The notes under the pieces were generated by a model. That model was not told where the DNA came from and searched no databases. It worked only from the letters and a program-made list of their open reading frames with translations. Shown here piece by piece: positions 47,179 through 64,000 of a stretch of 64,000 nucleotides of DNA (position 1 is its first letter; each line of letters starts with the position of its first letter). The position numbers and the translations under genes were made by a program. This stretch comes from a virus (Duplodnaviria > Caudoviricetes), in IMG/VR virus record IMGVR_UViG_3300033121_002300, positions 1-64,000 of that record, one strand, 5' to 3'.

Positions 47179-48111
47179 TTAGTTAAAATCAATCTTAGCT
47201 ATTGAATTAACGTTAACTATAGATTGAGCAATTACTTCTCTCATCTTAATAGATAAGATGTAATCTTCCCATTTTACGGTAGTTTCAGGTGAACCGAACT
47301 CATAGAACTTACCAAGCATATTGTTAGGACCAAAACCATAAAGAGTTCCTTCCTGAACAATATCAGAATTAAGAGTGGTAATCCACTTTAAGTTAAATAA
47401 GTTTTTGTATTTACCATCATCACCCATTAATCCCTTTGTAACTAAATCTTGCATTATACGTGAACCAACAAGGGAATTTTCCCAAGAAAGTATATCAGAA
47501 TAAGTAGCTTCATGGCAAAGCACAGTCACAAGAGGTATTCTCATTCTGTCAAACGCTTTTTTAAGCAAAGCTATATCATTTGGCTTAATTGAAGAATTTG
47601 GTGAATTGATAATATTTCCAGAAACAGCAAGGCATCTTTCAACTTGTTCCATAAATCTTCCATCTTCAACAGCAAGGAAGTCATTTCTGATAACACCCTC
47701 AATATATTGTCTAATAGGAATAGGACTGTTTATAATCTGATTTTCAGACATCTTAAATGTTCTACTTACCAGAGGGTTAAATCTAATCCTATGTAATTTA
47801 GATGTATACCAGATGTCTTTACTAGGCTGTAACCAGTCACTAGCTGAAACAAGATACCCATTTATCGGATCTTCAACCGGAACGAACTTAGTTAGAACGT
47901 CAGGGTTATAAGGGTCACGATTTAAATCTTCACGAGTACATTGCTTATAATCAACAATTTGTCTTGAAAAACCATCTTCACGAACAAACTTGAAGATCAT
48001 TTCCTCATTTACAGTTTCAGCAATTTTCTCAAGACCTTCTTTTCCACCATGTTTAGCTAAGTTTAGAAGCTTTTCATTTTCTAATTCAGCTTCAGTTAAT
48101 TCATTTGCCAT
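47179..48111 (-). CDS. probable major capsid protein
   Basis: GGAG RBS before MANELT; REDGFSRQI, IRNDFLAVEDGRF, YGFGP..LGKFY pattern; about 310 aa; last gene of the head operon before a terminator. Confidence 0.7.
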   Translation of the reverse strand: MANELTEAELENEKLLNLAKHGGKEGLEKIAETVNEEMIFKFVREDGFSRQIVDYKQCTREDLNRDPYNPDVLTKFVPVEDPINGYLVSASDWLQPSKDIWYTSKLHRIRFNPLVSRTFKMSENQIINSPIPIRQYIEGVIRNDFLAVEDGRFMEQVERCLAVSGNIINSPNSSIKPNDIALLKKAFDRMRIPLVTVLCHEATYSDILSWENSLVGSRIMQDLVTKGLMGDDGKYKNLFNLKWITTLNSDIVQEGTLYGFGPNNMLGKFYEFGSPETTVKWEDYILSIKMREVIAQSIVNVNSIAKIDFN

Positions 48112-48137
48112 ATTTTTTGTCTCCTTTTTCAACTTAA

Positions 48138-56593: not shown

Positions 56594-59500
56594 ATGAGGC
56601 AACCGGATCAGTACACAAAAGCAATACAGGATTCCTTGAAACAAGTTTTAGAACAAACTTACAGTAAGATAGACGGAAAAAATAAATCAATAGAATTAAA
56701 TAACATAACATTTGATCCTATTCCTGAAAGTGATAATTACGCTAAGCAAAAAAAGATATTATTAAACAAAGAAACCGAGGGTGTTAACTTTTATGGAGAT
56801 GTAAGATTAGTTGATAAAGAATCAGGGAAAATAATTGACGAAAAAAAGAAACTTAAACTAGGTTTATTGCCCACAGTAACAGATAGACATTCATTTATAA
56901 TAAACGGAAAAGAATACAATGTTTTTAATCAACTTAGATTACAACCGGGTATATACACAAAAATAGATCAAAATGGATTACCAGTTGCGGGATTTAATCT
57001 GGAAAAAGGTAAGAACATGCAAATAACATATGTTCCCGCAAAAGAAAGGATGATGTTAAAAATTGAAAACACCAATATACCATTATACACACTCCTTAAA
57101 GATGTTTATAATTTACCGGAATCAAAATTAATTGAAGCGTTTGGAAAAGAATTTCACGGGTATCAGATTGATAAATATAAGAATGACTCTGAAAGATATT
57201 TAAACAATTTATATAAAGCTTTGACAGGTAATGAAGTTTCAGGTAGAACACCAAATCAGATGGCAATTGAAATAAAAGAGAGATTAAGTAAAACATCTAT
57301 GAATCCTGAAATAACCAAAATGACAACAGGAAAAGAATTTTCAAGTGTCACATCAGACTCTATTTTGGAAGGAGCAAAACAGGTACTAGGAATTCATCAA
57401 GGTAAAATCAACCCATCTGAAAGAGATAATTTAGCTTTTAAATCAGTATTATCGGCTGAAGATTTCATTAAGGAAAAATTCACCAAACTTGCACCTCAAA
57501 TAAAAAACAAGATTAAATTTAAGTTAGATAAATCAGATAAAATAATGGATACCGGAATATCAAGACAGGTGAGAGAAACTTTAAATGATTTTTTTACAAA
57601 AAGTAGACTGGTTAATTACTCTCAACAAATCAACCCAATGGAATTTCTTGAAAGCAGTCACAAAATAACCTCAATAGGAGAAGGCGCTATTTCAGATGTA
57701 CACTCATTACCGATTGAGAATAGAGATATACACTGGTCATTTGGTGGGTTCATAGACCCTGTAAGGACACCTGATAATATGAGAGCTGGAGCGGATGTAA
57801 GAACAGCGATGTCAGCATGGAAGGAGGGTAATACACTTAAGTCATTAGCTTTTAATAAATCAGGTCAACCGGTCGAAGTTTCTCCAGCTGAATTGTTTTA
57901 TAAAACCTATTCAATGCTGAATCAAAAATCAACAATTAAAGAAAACGGTCAAGAACTTTTTCCTGCATTTAGAAAAGGAAATATTGTTTACGTGCCCAAG
58001 AAAGAAATTGATTTTTTTGTAAAACCAGATTATGCCTTTACTCCAACAACGGCATATATCCCTTTTCTTGAATCAAATCAAGGTCAAAGATGCGCAATGG
58101 GAGCTAAAATGTTAACTCAAGCCTTATCATTAAAAGACAGAGAGACTCCATTAATTTCAACAGATGCCAGTAAGTTAATAGAAAATTCTTACGTACCAAA
58201 GTCAAAAGTTGACGGAGTTGTTGAGAAAATAAATAAAGACACATTGGAAATAAGAGATGAAAACGGAAACATTCATCATCACAATGTACCTAATAACTTC
58301 CCATTAAATTACCACTCATTTCTTGATTTTACTCCACTTGTAAAACCAGGTGATAAGGTTAAACAAGGTGACGTACTAGGTGATACAAATTTTTCCAGGA
58401 ACGGAAAAATGGCGCTTGGAGTAAACTTAAACGTTGCTTATATGCCATATAAAGGTTTAAATAACGATGATGCATTTGTTATAACTCAGCAAGGAGCAGA
58501 TAAGCTAACGTCACTGCATACATTTATATATGAATTACCATTATCTCCGGGAATAATTGCAGATAAAGAAAAATTCAGATCATATTATCCAAACAAATAT
58601 TCAGTTCAGCAATTAATGAAAATACAAAATTCAATAATTAAACAGGGAGCAAAAGTTGAGCCAGGAGATCCGTTGATTTTAGCATTAAGGAAAAAAAGTG
58701 AGTCACCTGAGGTCTTAATGATAGGAAAGATGTCGAGTCGAATATCTAATCCTTATGAGGATATTTCAATTTCATGGGATAAAGATTATCCTGGTGAAGT
58801 TATCGAAGTAGTAAGCGCAGGAGATCATTTAAAGGTAATTGTAAAAGCGGAAAGCCCTATGGTCATAGGAAGTAAGCTAGCTGGTAGATATGGTAATAAA
58901 GGGGTTGTAGCAGAAATTATCCCAAACCACCTTGCTCCAAAAAAAGAAAATGGAGAAATTCCTGATATAATAATGAACCCATCAACGATACCAAGCCGTA
59001 TGAATGTAGGTCAAACTCTTGAAACAGGATTGGCTAAGATAATAAAAAATAAAGGGCTTAACTCTCAATATATTCAAAACTTTAGCGGAGTTAAGAATAT
59101 AGAAGAAATGGAAAAAGCCATGGATAAAGCTGGTATAAAAGGAAGTGAAACATATATAGATCCTGAGACCGGAAAAAAAATTCCAAACGTATTTAACGGA
59201 TATCAATATATTTTAAAATTATTTAAAGAAGCTGAAACTGCTTATTCAGCGAGAAGTACTGGTAAATATGATATTGACTTAAGACCAATGAGAGGTGGGG
59301 TTGAAGGAAGTAAAGCAATTGGAATGTTAGACTTTTATGGAGTGTTGGCTCATAAGGGAGGTAATCGAGCTCTTTTATCAGAAATGGGTACTCTTAAGGC
59401 TGAATACAATCCTGAGTTTTGGTCAAGCTTATTACAAGGTAAACCGCTCCCTGCCCCAAAACCTACATTTGCTTTTAATAAATTTATTGGAATGATGCAG

Positions 59501-62500
59501 GGTATGGGAATAAACCTCCAAAAGAACGGTAACACAATGAAATTGATTCCATTTACAGATAAAGATATTGAAAAAATTTCAAATGGCGAAATAACAAAAG
59601 CGAGTACAGTTTTTGCTAAACCAGATGAAAAAACAGGGCTACCATTTAGACCTGAAACAAATGGATTATTTGACCCAGCAAAAACAGGTGGACTTAAAGG
59701 GACGAATTTCACTCATATAAATTTAGCTGTCCCTGTTGTCAATTCAATGTTTGAAAAACCAATAAGAACATTGCTTAATCTTAAACAGGACGAGTTTAAA
59801 AAAATATCAGAAGGAAGCAAAACTGTAACAATAAATAATGAAGAGTTAACAGGGGGAAAGGCAATACACGAATTACTTAAATCAATAAATCCCAAAACAG
59901 AACTAGATAAATTAAAAACAAATGTATTAACAACTAAGTCAATAACAAAAAAAGACGATATGATAAAAAAAATAAAATACTTACAACCCTTGGTTGAAAA
60001 TAAATTACTACCACATGAAGCTTATACTTTTACGAAATTACCGGTAATACCTCCAGCTTTCAGACCAATTTACCCTGACTCAGAAGGCAAAATGGTGGTA
60101 TCAGATGCAAATCATTTATATAAAGAAGTTATTGAATTTAATAATCAAATGAAAAGTCCATTAATGCAAGCATTAGATCACAATGATCCCATTTATCAAA
60201 AGGCACATAGGAATTTATTTAATTCAATAAAAAAACTACAGGGGCTTGATGGCACAACTGATTCAATGGATTTTTCAGCAAGAGAACCAAAAGGGTTTCT
60301 TCAGACGATAGTTGGAACAAATGCAAAGTATGGGTATTTCCAAAATAAATTAGTTTCTAAAGTTCAAGATTTGGTAGGGCGAAGTGTAATTACCCCTGAT
60401 ACTAAATTAGGTATAGATGAATTAGGTATTCCTGAGCCAATGGCCTGGGAATTATACACCCCATTTATCATTGGAGAGCTATCAAAAAGCGGATACGCAC
60501 TTCCTCAAGCAACAGAAGAAGTTAAAAACCGAACACAACTTGCTAGGAATATTTTACAATCACAAATGAAAGAAAGACCGGTTATATTAAACAGAGCTCC
60601 AACGCTGCATAAATTTAATATGATGGCTTTTAAACCTTCGCTAACTAACGGAAAACAAATAACAATGCCCTCGTTAGTTAATCGTGGATTTAATGCTGAC
60701 TATGACGGGGATACAGTATTATCATCGGTGTTTTGTAGGTTTAAATTAGTTGACATTAAATCAATTAACAAGTATAATACAAATGGAAACATTTATATTG
60801 AGGAAAATATTATGACATTCACAAACAAAATCTTATATCAAAATGGATTAATTAATCTTAGGGATTTTCCAAGAATTGAAGAAACAAAAATAGTCAAAGA
60901 TAATAAAGAATTTTATAAAGTGCCACAAGGGGTTGAGGTTTTAACTTTAAATAATGAAGGAGAGTTTAAATGGTTACAGGTTGATGAATATTCAATACAT
61001 AAAAACTTAATAATGAATGAGATTTCAACTCATAAAAACAGAACAGTTCAGGCTAGTAACGATCACTCATTTGTAACACTTGATTCTGATTTAAATATAA
61101 TAATGTCCAAAGCTGAATTAAATATGTTAATCCCGTGTAAGGTATCACCGGTTTTCCAGAGTTCTATTTATGATCTAAAATTAGAATTTAAAGATAGAAC
61201 GAATAGAAAGCATACATTTAGAGATAGAATGGAATTAAATTATTTTACTGGTCACTTAATTGGATGTATTGTCGGTGACGGATGGGTCTCATCCGTAGCA
61301 AAAGATAAAGGAGCTATTTGCTTTGCTTCTATTACACAGGAGTTAAACAAGCAGTGGAAAAAAACAATAGAAAAGTATATCGTTTCAGAATCAGAGGTAG
61401 TTCACTTATCATCAGTTAATTGTGATCATGTATATGAAGGGTTTGAATGTAAATCAAATAAAATAACTTGGTTTTCAGCAGGGGAATTCGCTTTATTGAT
61501 TAAAGATTGGGTTGGACATGGAGCTCAAAAAAAACATTTACCACCATTCTTCCTTGAGTCACCAATTGATTTTCGTAAAGGGCTTTTGGCTGGATTACTG
61601 GATACAGATGGTACTGTTAGTATTAATTCATCAGGAATAAGAAAGAATAAGTCTCAAGCTAATATTTCTATTTGCACAACATCTTATCAATTAGCTCATG
61701 AGATTATAGCGTTATCTAATTCTTTAGGTTATATATGTGGATTACAATATTCACAAACACCAAAAGGAGAGCCTTGTTATTATTGCATATTTGATACAGA
61801 GAGTATTCTAAAAATAAAAAAAGAAATATTGCTTTATCATCCAGAAAAGGCCAACAAATTAAAACAAATCAGAGACAATGCAAATATTGAAAGAGAAAAA
61901 TATGGCCCCCCATTAACGGTATCAAGATTAAATGAGCTAAGGAAAATAATAGGAGCTCCTCGTGTTTTCAAAAGAGGAACAAAGACACCAAGTTTTGAAG
62001 GTAAGGAACTTGAAATAGCATATTTAAAACGAAATTTAAACGCTGAAATTGCAGCACAAATAAAAAAATTAGACGGAAGATGTGGTCATTTAACGCTAGG
62101 AAAATGTAAGGAAATAATCTCCCTTAATTTATCTGAAATAAATGAAGACCCATTTTGGTTGCGTTGGAAAGATTGGGTATTAAATCCTGATGTTTCTTGG
62201 GAGCGTATAACTGATATTAAGCCACTACCTTTTATAACCGAAGCTTACGATTTAACCATCCCTCCTGCATATACAATGGTAACCGAGTCCGGTATTGTTG
62301 TTTGGGATTCTCTTAACGTCCATATGCCTGTGGCTCCCGATGCTGTTAAAGAGGCATGGAAGATGCTCCCGTCAAATAATCTATTTAATCCATTAAATAA
62401 AAATCCAATGTTTATGCCAGATCAAGAAGCTGTAATGGGGCTTTATCAAATAAGCACGCCAAAACAAAATACACCGATAATGAAATTTAAAAGCATTGAA

Positions 62501-62569
62501 GATGCAAAAAAAGCTTATCATGATGGTAAAATAGATATAAATGATCATATTGAGGTACAAAACAAATAA
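56594..62569 (+). CDS. multisubunit-type DNA-directed RNA polymerase, beta fused to N-terminal beta', with intein
   Basis: beta motifs: QRCAMGAKMLTQA, GSKLAGRYGNKG, IMNPSTIPSRMNVGQ, ARSTGKY. beta' motifs: VIPPAFRP, SDANHLY, KVQDLVGRSVI, LNRAPTLH, NADYDGD|SLNVH. Confidence 0.95.
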   Translation: MRQPDQYTKAIQDSLKQVLEQTYSKIDGKNKSIELNNITFDPIPESDNYAKQKKILLNKETEGVNFYGDVRLVDKESGKIIDEKKKLKLGLLPTVTDRHSFIINGKEYNVFNQLRLQPGIYTKIDQNGLPVAGFNLEKGKNMQITYVPAKERMMLKIENTNIPLYTLLKDVYNLPESKLIEAFGKEFHGYQIDKYKNDSERYLNNLYKALTGNEVSGRTPNQMAIEIKERLSKTSMNPEITKMTTGKEFSSVTSDSILEGAKQVLGIHQGKINPSERDNLAFKSVLSAEDFIKEKFTKLAPQIKNKIKFKLDKSDKIMDTGISRQVRETLNDFFTKSRLVNYSQQINPMEFLESSHKITSIGEGAISDVHSLPIENRDIHWSFGGFIDPVRTPDNMRAGADVRTAMSAWKEGNTLKSLAFNKSGQPVEVSPAELFYKTYSMLNQKSTIKENGQELFPAFRKGNIVYVPKKEIDFFVKPDYAFTPTTAYIPFLESNQGQRCAMGAKMLTQALSLKDRETPLISTDASKLIENSYVPKSKVDGVVEKINKDTLEIRDENGNIHHHNVPNNFPLNYHSFLDFTPLVKPGDKVKQGDVLGDTNFSRNGKMALGVNLNVAYMPYKGLNNDDAFVITQQGADKLTSLHTFIYELPLSPGIIADKEKFRSYYPNKYSVQQLMKIQNSIIKQGAKVEPGDPLILALRKKSESPEVLMIGKMSSRISNPYEDISISWDKDYPGEVIEVVSAGDHLKVIVKAESPMVIGSKLAGRYGNKGVVAEIIPNHLAPKKENGEIPDIIMNPSTIPSRMNVGQTLETGLAKIIKNKGLNSQYIQNFSGVKNIEEMEKAMDKAGIKGSETYIDPETGKKIPNVFNGYQYILKLFKEAETAYSARSTGKYDIDLRPMRGGVEGSKAIGMLDFYGVLAHKGGNRALLSEMGTLKAEYNPEFWSSLLQGKPLPAPKPTFAFNKFIGMMQGMGINLQKNGNTMKLIPFTDKDIEKISNGEITKASTVFAKPDEKTGLPFRPETNGLFDPAKTGGLKGTNFTHINLAVPVVNSMFEKPIRTLLNLKQDEFKKISEGSKTVTINNEELTGGKAIHELLKSINPKTELDKLKTNVLTTKSITKKDDMIKKIKYLQPLVENKLLPHEAYTFTKLPVIPPAFRPIYPDSEGKMVVSDANHLYKEVIEFNNQMKSPLMQALDHNDPIYQKAHRNLFNSIKKLQGLDGTTDSMDFSAREPKGFLQTIVGTNAKYGYFQNKLVSKVQDLVGRSVITPDTKLGIDELGIPEPMAWELYTPFIIGELSKSGYALPQATEEVKNRTQLARNILQSQMKERPVILNRAPTLHKFNMMAFKPSLTNGKQITMPSLVNRGFNADYDGDTVLSSVFCRFKLVDIKSINKYNTNGNIYIEENIMTFTNKILYQNGLINLRDFPRIEETKIVKDNKEFYKVPQGVEVLTLNNEGEFKWLQVDEYSIHKNLIMNEISTHKNRTVQASNDHSFVTLDSDLNIIMSKAELNMLIPCKVSPVFQSSIYDLKLEFKDRTNRKHTFRDRMELNYFTGHLIGCIVGDGWVSSVAKDKGAICFASITQELNKQWKKTIEKYIVSESEVVHLSSVNCDHVYEGFECKSNKITWFSAGEFALLIKDWVGHGAQKKHLPPFFLESPIDFRKGLLAGLLDTDGTVSINSSGIRKNKSQANISICTTSYQLAHEIIALSNSLGYICGLQYSQTPKGEPCYYCIFDTESILKIKKEILLYHPEKANKLKQIRDNANIEREKYGPPLTVSRLNELRKIIGAPRVFKRGTKTPSFEGKELEIAYLKRNLNAEIAAQIKKLDGRCGHLTLGKCKEIISLNLSEINEDPFWLRWKDWVLNPDVSWERITDIKPLPFITEAYDLTIPPAYTMVTESGIVVWDSLNVHMPVAPDAVKEAWKMLPSNNLFNPLNKNPMFMPDQEAVMGLYQISTPKQNTPIMKFKSIEDAKKAYHDGKIDINDHIEVQNK
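60713..62308 (+). mobile_element. 532 aa LAGLIDADG intein with atypical ends
   Basis: Follows NADYDGD; ASNDHS (B), LIGCIVGDG and LLAGLLDTDG (LAGLIDADG), AYDLTI (F); ends IVVWD|S. Confidence 0.85.
60750..60814 (+). promoter_or_regulatory. perfect sigma70 promoter, RBS and in-frame ATG inside the intein
   Basis: TTGACA 60750-55, 17 nt spacer, TATAAT 60773-78, GAGG 60800-03, ATG 60812 in the RNAP frame. Confidence 0.75.
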
Positions 62570-64000
62570 TGTTTAATGAATTATTATCCACCATGTCTAA
62601 TATTAAAAGCCCTCAAACGGATTTAGGTCAATTTTTACCAACCGTTTTTGCTAGTCAAGGTAACTTTTCTCCCTTGTTATTTAACAAGACCCTTGATTTG
62701 TACAATCAAAAATATAATAAAAATGAAAAAAATCCATTTAATAAATATGTTAATAATTATATGGGTTCAAATGTTGTAAAGAATATAAAGGAATATAAAG
62801 GACTTATTGACAATGAGAAGGCTATTTATGGAGCAAAAGAACCTGGATTTTCATCCTTATTTCTAAATGCAAAAGGTTCTGTAAATAGAACTTCCCCTTA
62901 CGAAGAAGTTTTAAAAGCAGGGAAGATTAGAGCTGAATCTTTAAATAAATTAGTTGATTCAGATATTTCTCATACTACCACAAATCTAGGTACTAATATG
63001 GCATTGCTACAGGGAGAAAATCTAGCTAAAAATTTCATAACTCAAAAAGCCGTTGGCAAAGCTACTGAGTTAATAGCAGATAAAGTTGGAGATAAACTCA
63101 AAGATAAATTCAAGAACTATAACCAAGATCAAATAGCTAAAGTCATAACTGAGACCAGTGATAGGATATCAGGGTTTAATAGATCGAAATTAGGATTAAT
63201 GGATATTGCTAAGTTTATAAATCCAGTGCCTATAATGTTAGGTTCAGCTGGTTTAAAAGCTGGTAATGCGGTAGTAAAACAAGGTTTAATGGGAGTGCTT
63301 GGAGTGCAAGATGCCTATCATGCAACAAGTAATGAATCAGCTAAAAAGATAGTAGAACACGGGTTAGATCCATCAAGAGGCGGGCAAAAAGGTGGTGCGA
63401 CAAGGGCTTTAATGAGAGAAGCTTATGAGTCTAATAAGATATACCCAACAATAAAAGCAGCCCCATTGATCTCCCAGCAGCGAGATGCTTATTTAAAAGT
63501 TCCAGTATATGACTTATTCGATCAGGCTGTTCAAAGAAGTTATGTTGGGACAGGTTTAGTCGGAAAGGGTTCAGTTGGATATTATGCGGCAAAGACAAAC
63601 CCTGAAGGTTTTATGGAAAAGGTTAAAAACGTTATTGAATCTACTGCATTAGCACGAAAACAACTAGAACAAACTTCATTCAAGAATCCAATAAAAAAAA
63701 TAAAAGCATTTGCGAACACAGCCAAAGAAGTTGCTAAAACTCCACTAAAGGTAAATGACTTATACAATTTTTTATACTCAAAGAATCCTGAAGAAATGAA
63801 AATCGTTGCAACCGCAATGCCGTTCAATGAGTTCCATCAAAGATTTGAACCAGATCCTCAAGATGTTGCATATCTTAGAACAGGATACAGAACTAAGAGA
63901 CCGAAAGAGATAGACCCCTTAGGTGAAAAAACATTTACGATGACTGATGATCAACTAGATAAACACGTATCAGATGCTCTTGAGGGTGTATCAAAGTCTG
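62569..64000 (+). CDS. truncated large ORF, putative virion protein with an ART-like motif (not in ORF track)
   Basis: TAATG overlap with the RNAP stop; open by hand translation to the window end (MFNELLSTMSNIKSPQ...); contains AYHATSNESAKKIVEHGLDPSRGG. Confidence 0.75.
   Translation, partial: MFNELLSTMSNIKSPQTDLGQFLPTVFASQGNFSPLLFNKTLDLYNQKYNKNEKNPFNKYVNNYMGSNVVKNIKEYKGLIDNEKAIYGAKEPGFSSLFLNAKGSVNRTSPYEEVLKAGKIRAESLNKLVDSDISHTTTNLGTNMALLQGENLAKNFITQKAVGKATELIADKVGDKLKDKFKNYNQDQIAKVITETSDRISGFNRSKLGLMDIAKFINPVPIMLGSAGLKAGNAVVKQGLMGVLGVQDAYHATSNESAKKIVEHGLDPSRGGQKGGATRALMREAYESNKIYPTIKAAPLISQQRDAYLKVPVYDLFDQAVQRSYVGTGLVGKGSVGYYAAKTNPEGFMEKVKNVIESTALARKQLEQTSFKNPIKKIKAFANTAKEVAKTPLKVNDLYNFLYSKNPEEMKIVATAMPFNEFHQRFEPDPQDVAYLRTGYRTKRPKEIDPLGEKTFTMTDDQLDKHVSDALEGVSKS

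Follow-up and report, generated by a model that had tools for sequence, protein, structure and literature searches.

Can an intein carry, inside the sequence that encodes it as protein, its own signals for transcription and translation? Inteins are thought to depend wholly on the host gene for their expression. The question is raised by a fused RNA polymerase (RNAP) gene in the window, the 64,000-nucleotide stretch that was analysed (positions 1 to 64,000 of IMG/VR record IMGVR_UViG_3300033121_002300), which is part of an 82-kb virus contig with a completeness estimate of 45%. This gene is interrupted by an intein at the magnesium-binding loop of the polymerase, and the initial annotation had placed the sequence TTGACA-N17-TATAAT, a GAGG sequence and an in-frame ATG codon within this intein. 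All of these elements are present, and the phage intein family to which the window intein belongs retains such start signals inside the sequence that encodes it. A second protein product is thereby indicated, by which a selfish endonuclease may escape the timing of its host gene. The elements concerned are the following.

56594 to 62569, plus strand: gene for a fused beta-beta' (N-terminal part) phage RNA polymerase, 1991 codons, assigned from the list of open reading frames (ORFs) and Pfam; it hosts the intein
60692 to 60712, plus strand: catalytic metal-binding motif NADYDGD, which forms the junction at the end of the N-extein
60713 to 62308, plus strand: LAGLIDADG intein, 532 amino acids, starting with Thr1 and ending with Trp-Asp before Ser+1
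60713 to 60748, plus strand: intein residues 1-12 (TVLSSVFCRFKL), first beta-strand according to the conserved N-terminus of homologs and the model; matches the short N-piece of split relatives
60749 to 60811, plus strand: variable linker that bears the regulatory signals, in the loop joining strands 1 and 2 (intein residues 13-33)
60750 to 60755, plus strand: -35 hexamer TTGACA, kept in relatives in two codon frames and with a rare GAC codon
60773 to 60778, plus strand: -10 hexamer TATAAT after a spacer of 17 nt; the transcription start would lie at about 60785-60786
60800 to 60803, plus strand: Shine-Dalgarno (SD) core GAGG, 8 nt before the ATG
60812 to 60814, plus strand: in-frame ATG, Met34 of the intein and residue 1407 of the protein, homologous to the start of the C-gene of split relatives
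60812 to 62569, plus strand: predicted internal product, 585 amino acids, with the intein from strand 2, the LAGLIDADG endonuclease and an 86-residue C-extein

Predicted start signals in a loop of the intein

The promoter matches the sigma70 consensus at 12 of 12 positions. It had been described as the only perfect consensus promoter noticed, and a scan of both strands of the 64 kb finds it to be the sole perfect match, and the sole match even when one mismatch is allowed. Near-consensus promoter sites are not enriched in the window (1 observed against 1.77 expected), and promoter-like sites show no enrichment across 54-64 kb. The position of the promoter, however, is far from random: it falls within a 99-nt linker that bears this cassette in relatives too, and its score is reached by none of 300 shuffles of this linker. 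The promoter is of host type in the sense of the general bacterial consensus, on which this designation is based.

The promoter is accompanied, inside the interrupted host gene, by a ribosome-binding site, so that both transcription and translation of the C-terminal piece are predicted to start there. The duplex energy of the SD sequence is -6.2 kcal/mol, as compared with a median of -6.1 kcal/mol for the real gene starts of this phage (n=51) and a mean of -1.6 kcal/mol for random ATGs. This phage uses SD sites, and a value of -6.2 kcal/mol is typical of its real starts. The predicted start codon lies at the alignment column where the C-gene of split relatives starts. A search of 60300-62700 against Rfam gives no match, and the RNA of the window linker folds no better than its shuffles (z +1.2).

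The initial annotation had remarked that this stretch reads like AT-rich intergenic DNA. This impression is borne out by a GC content of 23% for the linker versus 33% for the ORF, by the hypervariability of the linker among homologs, and by a predicted local distance difference test score (pLDDT) below 50 in the AlphaFold model. In this model, intein residues 18-39, which include the -10 hexamer, the SD sequence and Met34, have such low values and are located between strands 5-14 and 39-48, so that the signals are predicted to sit in a disordered loop joining the first two strands of the intein fold. Thirty-three intein residues precede Met34, and a break at this position would give a short N-piece and a long C-piece. 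The possibility that the conserved Met is a structural residue was considered and rejected, because it sits in this low-confidence loop and GTG replaces ATG.

Conservation of the signals among relatives

Relatives were collected by a word-indexed search and a full HMMER search, which yield a large set of fused phage RNAPs; some have no intein, and many carry this one at the same site. When viral contigs are searched with one protein as the query, no relative appears, but an alignment as the query retrieves relatives. The DNA of the relatives is derived from IMG/VR (L002-L020), metagenomes (L085-L116) and assemblies (L082, L084), where L numbers denote loci and P numbers, below, denote proteins. 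All intein-bearing members have a conserved strand, S/C-x-x-x-S-V-[FY]-x-R-[FW], followed by a variable stretch, a Met and then the sequence ...GLINLxDFPR.... The linker is hypervariable both in length and in sequence, and the residues upstream of the conserved Met vary among the relatives.

Without pre-selection of the Met, the stretch between DGD and the point where the conserved part begins was compared with in-frame windows of the same length from the same ORF and with 300 dinucleotide shuffles, for 39 non-duplicate loci with GC contents of 28-68% and protein identities of 22-52%. The promoter is enriched in this region with a Fisher p of 1.9e-20 against the in-frame windows and 1.5e-18 against the dinucleotide shuffles, and the translation start with a Fisher p of 5.6e-18. 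At least one signal is present at p<0.05 in 28 of the 39 loci, and both signals in 11. The minus strand of the same linkers is not enriched in promoters (p 0.29).

Promoters that match the consensus at 12 of 12 positions are found in the window, L002, L016, L085 (with a 16-nt spacer) and L105, and those that match at 11 of 12 positions in L006, L086 and L082. At the homologous position, L084, which is the closest relative, carries TTAACA-17-TATAAG, with an extended -10 TG. In most loci the -35 hexamer translates as [VLIF]-Asp-x; L086, L003 and L092 have Leu-Thr instead. The hexamer uses GAC even where this codon accounts for only 13-22% of the Asp codons. The distance from the end of the -10 hexamer to the start codon is 36 nt in the median. 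GGAGG-like motifs are located 5-10 nt before the conserved Met, in varying codon frames, in relatives with GC contents of 30-68%. The SD duplex energy averages -8.5 kcal/mol at the conserved Met versus -2.5 kcal/mol at 743 other in-frame Mets of the same ORFs (Mann-Whitney p 9e-10), and the SD sequence at the conserved Met is the best of the whole ORF in 10 of 17 loci. The codon at the start column of the contiguous relatives is usually ATG; where Val occupies this column, its codon is GTG in all five cases (5/5), each with an SD sequence.

In a tree of the intein that was built without the linker, the cassette is present in all major clades, and perfect promoters are present in three separate clades. 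These results show that the predicted signals are conserved as DNA rather than as protein. Since they are conserved in distant relatives, chance is ruled out for the cassette. Contiguous homologs keep the promoter, the SD sequence and the start codon, and not all homologs are contiguous, so that the counter-evidence foreseen in the initial annotation, namely homologs that are all contiguous and lack the promoter, does not appear.

Across the family, the accessibility of the start site is also predicted to differ between the two transcripts. The SD sequence and start codon are unpaired with a family mean of 0.55 in the short transcript versus 0.35 in the read-through mRNA, and the gain in opening in the short transcript is 0.19 at this site versus 0.06 at control sites (p 0.005). 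In L085, a CCTCCT sequence in the promoter spacer faces the AGGAGG of the SD sequence.

A probable second protein product and its alternatives

These signals are probably (with a probability of about 0.65) an expression unit that is kept by selection and gives an IntC-endonuclease-C-extein protein (IntC, the C-terminal part of the intein) besides the full precursor, most likely as an early supply of the endonuclease. The full RNAP precursor would be made and must be spliced to give an active enzyme. Separately, host RNA polymerase would start a transcript near 60785, and ribosomes would start at 60812 to give the 585-residue protein of about 67 kDa from Met34, which would contain the intein fold from strand 2, the LAGLIDADG homing endonuclease and the 86-residue C-extein. 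Most of the insert can thus probably also be made as a separate protein. The endonuclease would then be supplied independently of the timing and level of RNAP gene expression, once host polymerase meets the DNA. Homing endonuclease genes of T-even phages, whether located in introns or free-standing, bring signals of their own in this way. The RNAP gene is beside, and divergent from, the head module (major head protein at 47179-48132); this neighbourhood would fit late expression of the RNAP, although any statement on timing is a guess. As a side effect, a stop codon or frameshift in the loop would give a gene pair for a working atypically split intein, as appears to have happened in a few relatives; a single mutation would suffice to bring the gene to a naturally split form.

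The initial annotation had proposed two outputs and a latent split intein, which is the best reading of the sequence evidence, because split relatives exist and contiguous homologs keep the signals. Early endonuclease expression is the best fit among the three roles that it had offered. The age of the cassette and its conservation in every clade of the intein tree speak against a snapshot of a gene that is fusing or splitting. The role of a trans-splicing partner is not applicable to the gene as it stands, because this gene is contiguous and no separate N-fragment is encoded.

The motifs of the insert, and the C-extein that follows it, are listed below.

61256 to 61288, plus strand: first LAGLIDADG motif (LIGCIVGDGWV), with G-D-G invariant in alignments A1 and A2
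61583 to 61618, plus strand: second LAGLIDADG motif (LLAGLLDTDGTV), within Pfam LAGLIDADG_3, with D-G invariant
62243 to 62308, plus strand: intein blocks F and G (AYDLTIPPAYTMVTESGIVVWD), terminated by Asp; the family ends with Asn or Asp (YD before T, WD before S, SN before T)
62309 to 62566, plus strand: C-extein, SLNVHMPV ... IEVQNK, 86 amino acids

The product of the ORF at 56594-62569 matches the Pfam families RNA_pol_Rpb2_6, Rpb1_1, Rpb1_2, LAGLIDADG_3 and Intein_splicing, and its N-extein consists of 1373 residues. Excision of 60713-62308 rejoins NADYDGD with SLNVHMPV, where the intein-less relative P0011 has NADYDGDQLNVHV. Since this excision restores a conserved host motif, the insert is an in-frame insertion of the kind expected for a bifunctional intein. 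The AlphaFold model of the intein has a pLDDT of 84 and a predicted template modelling score (pTM) of 0.86, and its best Foldseek matches are the TliVMA intein 7qss (E 9e-22), PI-PfuI and PI-SceI. According to this model, the insert would combine a HINT (Hedgehog/intein) splicing fold with a LAGLIDADG endonuclease fold. The acidic residues of the endonuclease (GDG, DTDG) are invariant across the family. The intein is predicted from its fold and motifs to splice and to cleave DNA.

The canonical pattern for a bifunctional intein is Cys or Ser as residue 1 and a terminal His-Asn before Cys, Ser or Thr. The window intein starts with Thr1 (ACA) and ends with Trp-Asp (..VVWD) before Ser+1; its relatives mostly start with Ser or Cys and end with Asn or Asp. 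The Thr codon ACA is one base away from the Ser codon TCA, and Thr1 is also found in the distant relative L009 (TILGSVF), so that it is not unique to the window. In the sequence YSIHKN (60989-61006, intein residues 93-98), the Ser and His are more than 90% conserved in the family (S104 and H106 in A2), and this His may be the counterpart of an 'NX' histidine that has been described in inteins without catalytic cysteine (PMC10189870). In a large branch of the intein family, residue 1 is not Ser, Cys or Thr but Gln, Asn, Lys, Leu, Asp, Glu, Arg, Met or Tyr (loci L007, L008, L013, L014, L016, L018, L095, L100, L105, L106, L110, L115 and L116; proteins P0028, P0036, P0041, P0169, P0209 and P0214). 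Block B of P0169, P0209, P0214 and P0255 is DDDPRAVYG, without a histidine; these four proteins retain the terminal Asn and Thr+1, and three of the four retain the Asp of block F. The closest relatives of the RNAP among isolated phages are about 31% identical and belong to Vibrio phages D181, D148 (OZ196140.1, OZ196545.1) and D69 and Salmonella phage Arash. Two of these closest phage relatives have a homing endonuclease and several hypothetical proteins annotated across the RNAP region, where the match is joined from two pieces.

The initial annotation had suggested that homologs be aligned for a naturally split form, and such forms are found in L168, P0017 and P0019. In L168, for which the DNA is available, the N-gene ends with ...KECKDA and a stop codon within the linker, and this stop overlaps (ATGCATAA) the start of a 685-residue IntC-endonuclease-C-extein gene. 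The C-gene starts at the Met34 column and has AAGGAG 7 nt upstream of its start, and the frame of this gene is closed five codons upstream of the start. P0017 and P0019 are diverged N-fragments from one sample, in which the stop occurs 27-28 residues after DGD and the next gene follows 25 or 31 nt later; on the P0019 contig, this next gene encodes a 537-residue protein with endonuclease domains. The window gene itself is continuous, because the ORF 56594-62569 has no stop codon in the linker, and it does not have the two-gene arrangement of a split intein.

The predicted internal product aligns end to end with 12 called C-fragment proteins (alignment A1), all of which start at the Met34 column, but at least four of them (P0130, P0152, P0169, P0209), and probably P0214, are gene calls at contig edges. 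Short proteins that start at this column (P0127, P0130, P0152, P0169, P0209, P0214 and others) were considered as split forms and rejected, because a contig end lies only 1-115 nt from the start of these genes; L082 has an open frame all the way upstream to where its contig stops. Five unrelated assemblies (P0130/L082, P0152, P0169/L165, P0209/L166, P0214/L083) end 1-115 nt upstream of the internal ATG. These breaks are likely to arise because coexisting alleles with and without the intein split the assembly graph at the insertion site, and gene callers take the strong internal start.

P0093 (L167) was rejected as a model of the split form: it ends 25 residues after DGD, but it belongs to another intein type and the next gene is not a C-piece. 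This other type at DGD, seen at L167:7700-7800 (P0093; also P0071 and P0095), has a canonical 25-residue N-piece, SVSGDTYVMV...IREVE, followed by a stop codon, and its C-piece must lie elsewhere in that genome. In L114, at about 2836-2870, the reading frame contains a TGA four codons beyond DGD (DYDGDSLSA, stop, VTMTYD), where the relatives have Val or Ile, and the internal SD sequence and ATG further on are intact; this gene could be broken, read through or an extreme split. In L088, L090, L091 and P0134, the intein ORF starts 2-15 residues before DGD (e.g. MITYDGD before C...) with in-frame stops upstream, and there seems to be a further cut in the host gene, immediately ahead of the catalytic motif. 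P0137, P0138 and P0151, which are related to P0134, have a C-extein, TVSFNVLY..., unlike that of RNAP beta'.

The strongest rival to the expression-unit reading is that the signals are relics. According to this explanation, the family alternates between split and contiguous states, only split genes need the signals, and contiguous genes are fusions that have yet to lose them; the internal start would have no role in the window gene. The existence of true split relatives with the same start codon, the resemblance of the linker to translated spacer DNA (low GC content, disorder and hypervariability) and the interconversion of the two states by a single stop codon or frameshift are consistent with it. 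However, contiguous genes far outnumber split genes (in the DNA examined, 39 non-duplicate loci versus L168, to which the P0017/P0019 pair is added from protein data), and contiguous forms on long separate branches keep promoters of 11-12/12 amid diverged surroundings. Signals that are not used should decay on that time scale, which weakens the relic explanation. Furthermore, the ATG is replaced only by GTG. The relic explanation is therefore unlikely, although it deserves more weight than any other alternative.

A less probable explanation is that the promoter serves the phage, by host transcription of the C-terminal part of the RNAP gene and of downstream genes, for example to offset the 1.6-kb insertion, and that the SD sequence and ATG are incidental. 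No plus-strand terminator-like site is found from 60812 to the end of the window, so that the transcript could run into the next ORF at 62569. However, the SD sequence and the in-frame ATG or GTG are conserved as strongly as the promoter and at a fixed distance from it, and intein-less relatives have no such promoter at this site. This next ORF encodes more than 477 amino acids with no family match above the threshold. The stop codon TAA of the RNAP ORF shares one base with the ATG of this ORF (62567-62571), which suggests translational coupling. The RNAP gene is beside, and divergent from, the head module (major head protein at 47179-48132); this neighbourhood would fit late expression of the RNAP, although any statement on timing is a guess.

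It is very improbable that the signals are a by-product of protein constraints or of the composition of a low-GC loop, without regulatory meaning. In most loci the GC content of the linker is 5-13 points lower than that of the ORF, and a structural preference could account for the [VLI]-Asp that the -35 hexamer frequently specifies where strand 1 ends; a chance origin is also conceivable for the window taken singly. However, the dinucleotide shuffles of the linkers control for composition and the enrichment persists against them, with none on the minus strand; the hexamer occurs in two reading frames and with a rare codon; and the -10 hexamer, SD sequence and start codon lie in the region with pLDDT <50 and keep a promoter-like order and spacing. 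An equally improbable role as pause sites, which would slow RNA polymerase or the ribosome so that the 1373-residue N-extein folds before the intein, agrees with the position directly after the N-extein but requires neither a -35 hexamer at an exact spacing of 16-18 nt nor a conserved ATG or GTG, and the same codon is the actual start in split relatives.

Several points weigh against the proposal of a selected expression unit. The perfect promoter in the window, taken singly, could be due to chance, because at least one perfect match with a spacer of 16-18 nt occurs in 15 of 100 dinucleotide shuffles of the window (mean 0.17). The SD sequence of the window is only moderate, 2 of the 42 other in-frame Mets having an equally good one, and no masking of this sequence is predicted in the long mRNA (0.52 in the short versus 0.60 in the long transcript), and no stable fold is predicted. 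In 11 of the 39 loci, neither signal reaches p<0.05 in the region test. Two of these loci, L017 and L102, lack the linker stretch and the Met, yet keep the endonuclease, so that the family can dispense with the cassette. The majority of the short C-fragment proteins lie at contig edges and therefore do not count as evidence for splitting. The second product would lack the first intein strand and still carry the C-extein, and its folding and endonuclease activity are predictions. Finally, the 39 loci are related, so that the combined p-values are not exact and overstate independence; this problem of kinship is limited, because the surrounding DNA is fully diverged and near saturation.

Comparison with known systems

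ORFs of T4 group I introns, such as that for I-TevI, carry their own expression signals. An intein with an internal promoter or an internal translation start was not found in the literature searched, which left most subscription journals outside its coverage. In the 'fractured genes' of phages, free-standing endonuclease genes, promoter elements and hairpins that mask ribosome-binding sites are located between the halves of split inteins (PMC2677866). The window intein resembles I-TevI and the endonucleases of fractured genes in that a selfish endonuclease in an essential phage gene brings a promoter and a ribosome-binding site. At the level of the family there is also a hint that the site is masked in the read-through mRNA, although no such masking is predicted for the window itself. 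The window intein differs from both in that their endonuclease has its own ORF, within an intron or between the gene halves, whereas the signals of the window are in frame with the intein, and the predicted product shares the frame and most of the sequence of the precursor. The endonuclease of the window is thus not a separate ORF outside the host frame.

Phage inteins with an out-of-frame or antisense endonuclease have been described without mention of promoters or start signals (bioRxiv 10.1101/2025.01.02.630785). The window intein is similar to these non-canonical inteins in that the endonuclease would be translated from its own start inside intein DNA, but its predicted second product would keep the frame and contain most of the splicing domain. 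It shares with PI-SceI, PI-PfuI and the TliVMA intein the two-domain fold (Foldseek E of about 1e-10 to 1e-21), the insertion at a catalytic site and the location of the endonuclease between blocks B and F. In contrast to these inteins, which rely entirely on the expression of the host gene, it contains a regulatory insert of 21 residues in the loop that joins its first two strands, as well as a Thr at its start and Trp-Asp at its end.

For an intein gene to break, a promoter and a start have to arise anew, and the intermediates are unclear according to the authors who discussed it (PMC2677866). Because both are needed at the same moment, the transition from a contiguous gene to two genes is an open problem. 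The cassette offers a one-step route to split genes, which has been taken at least twice in nature. It is conceivable, at somewhat less than even odds, that every member of the family is both a cis-splicing intein and a ready-made split intein by virtue of a permanent in-frame cassette, and that this would be the viable intermediate so far missing from accounts of how split inteins arose.

Atypically split inteins have N-pieces of 15-37 residues, and they have been described without an endonuclease and without an account of expression signals (PMC11766414, PMC10189870). The window intein differs from them in that its gene is one continuous frame and its long C-piece bears a full LAGLIDADG endonuclease, whereas the published ones are minimal. 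It resembles them in the position of the potential break, in the loop after strand 1, with 12 structured residues plus a tail in the N-piece, and in its phage or metagenomic context; its catalytic residues (Thr1, Ser+1) are free of cysteine, as in PolB16. Its relatives L168 and P0017/P0019 are truly split at this loop. The family thus provides a natural series of inteins with a structured N-piece of 12 residues and cysteine-free chemistry, the type that is sought for protein ligation.

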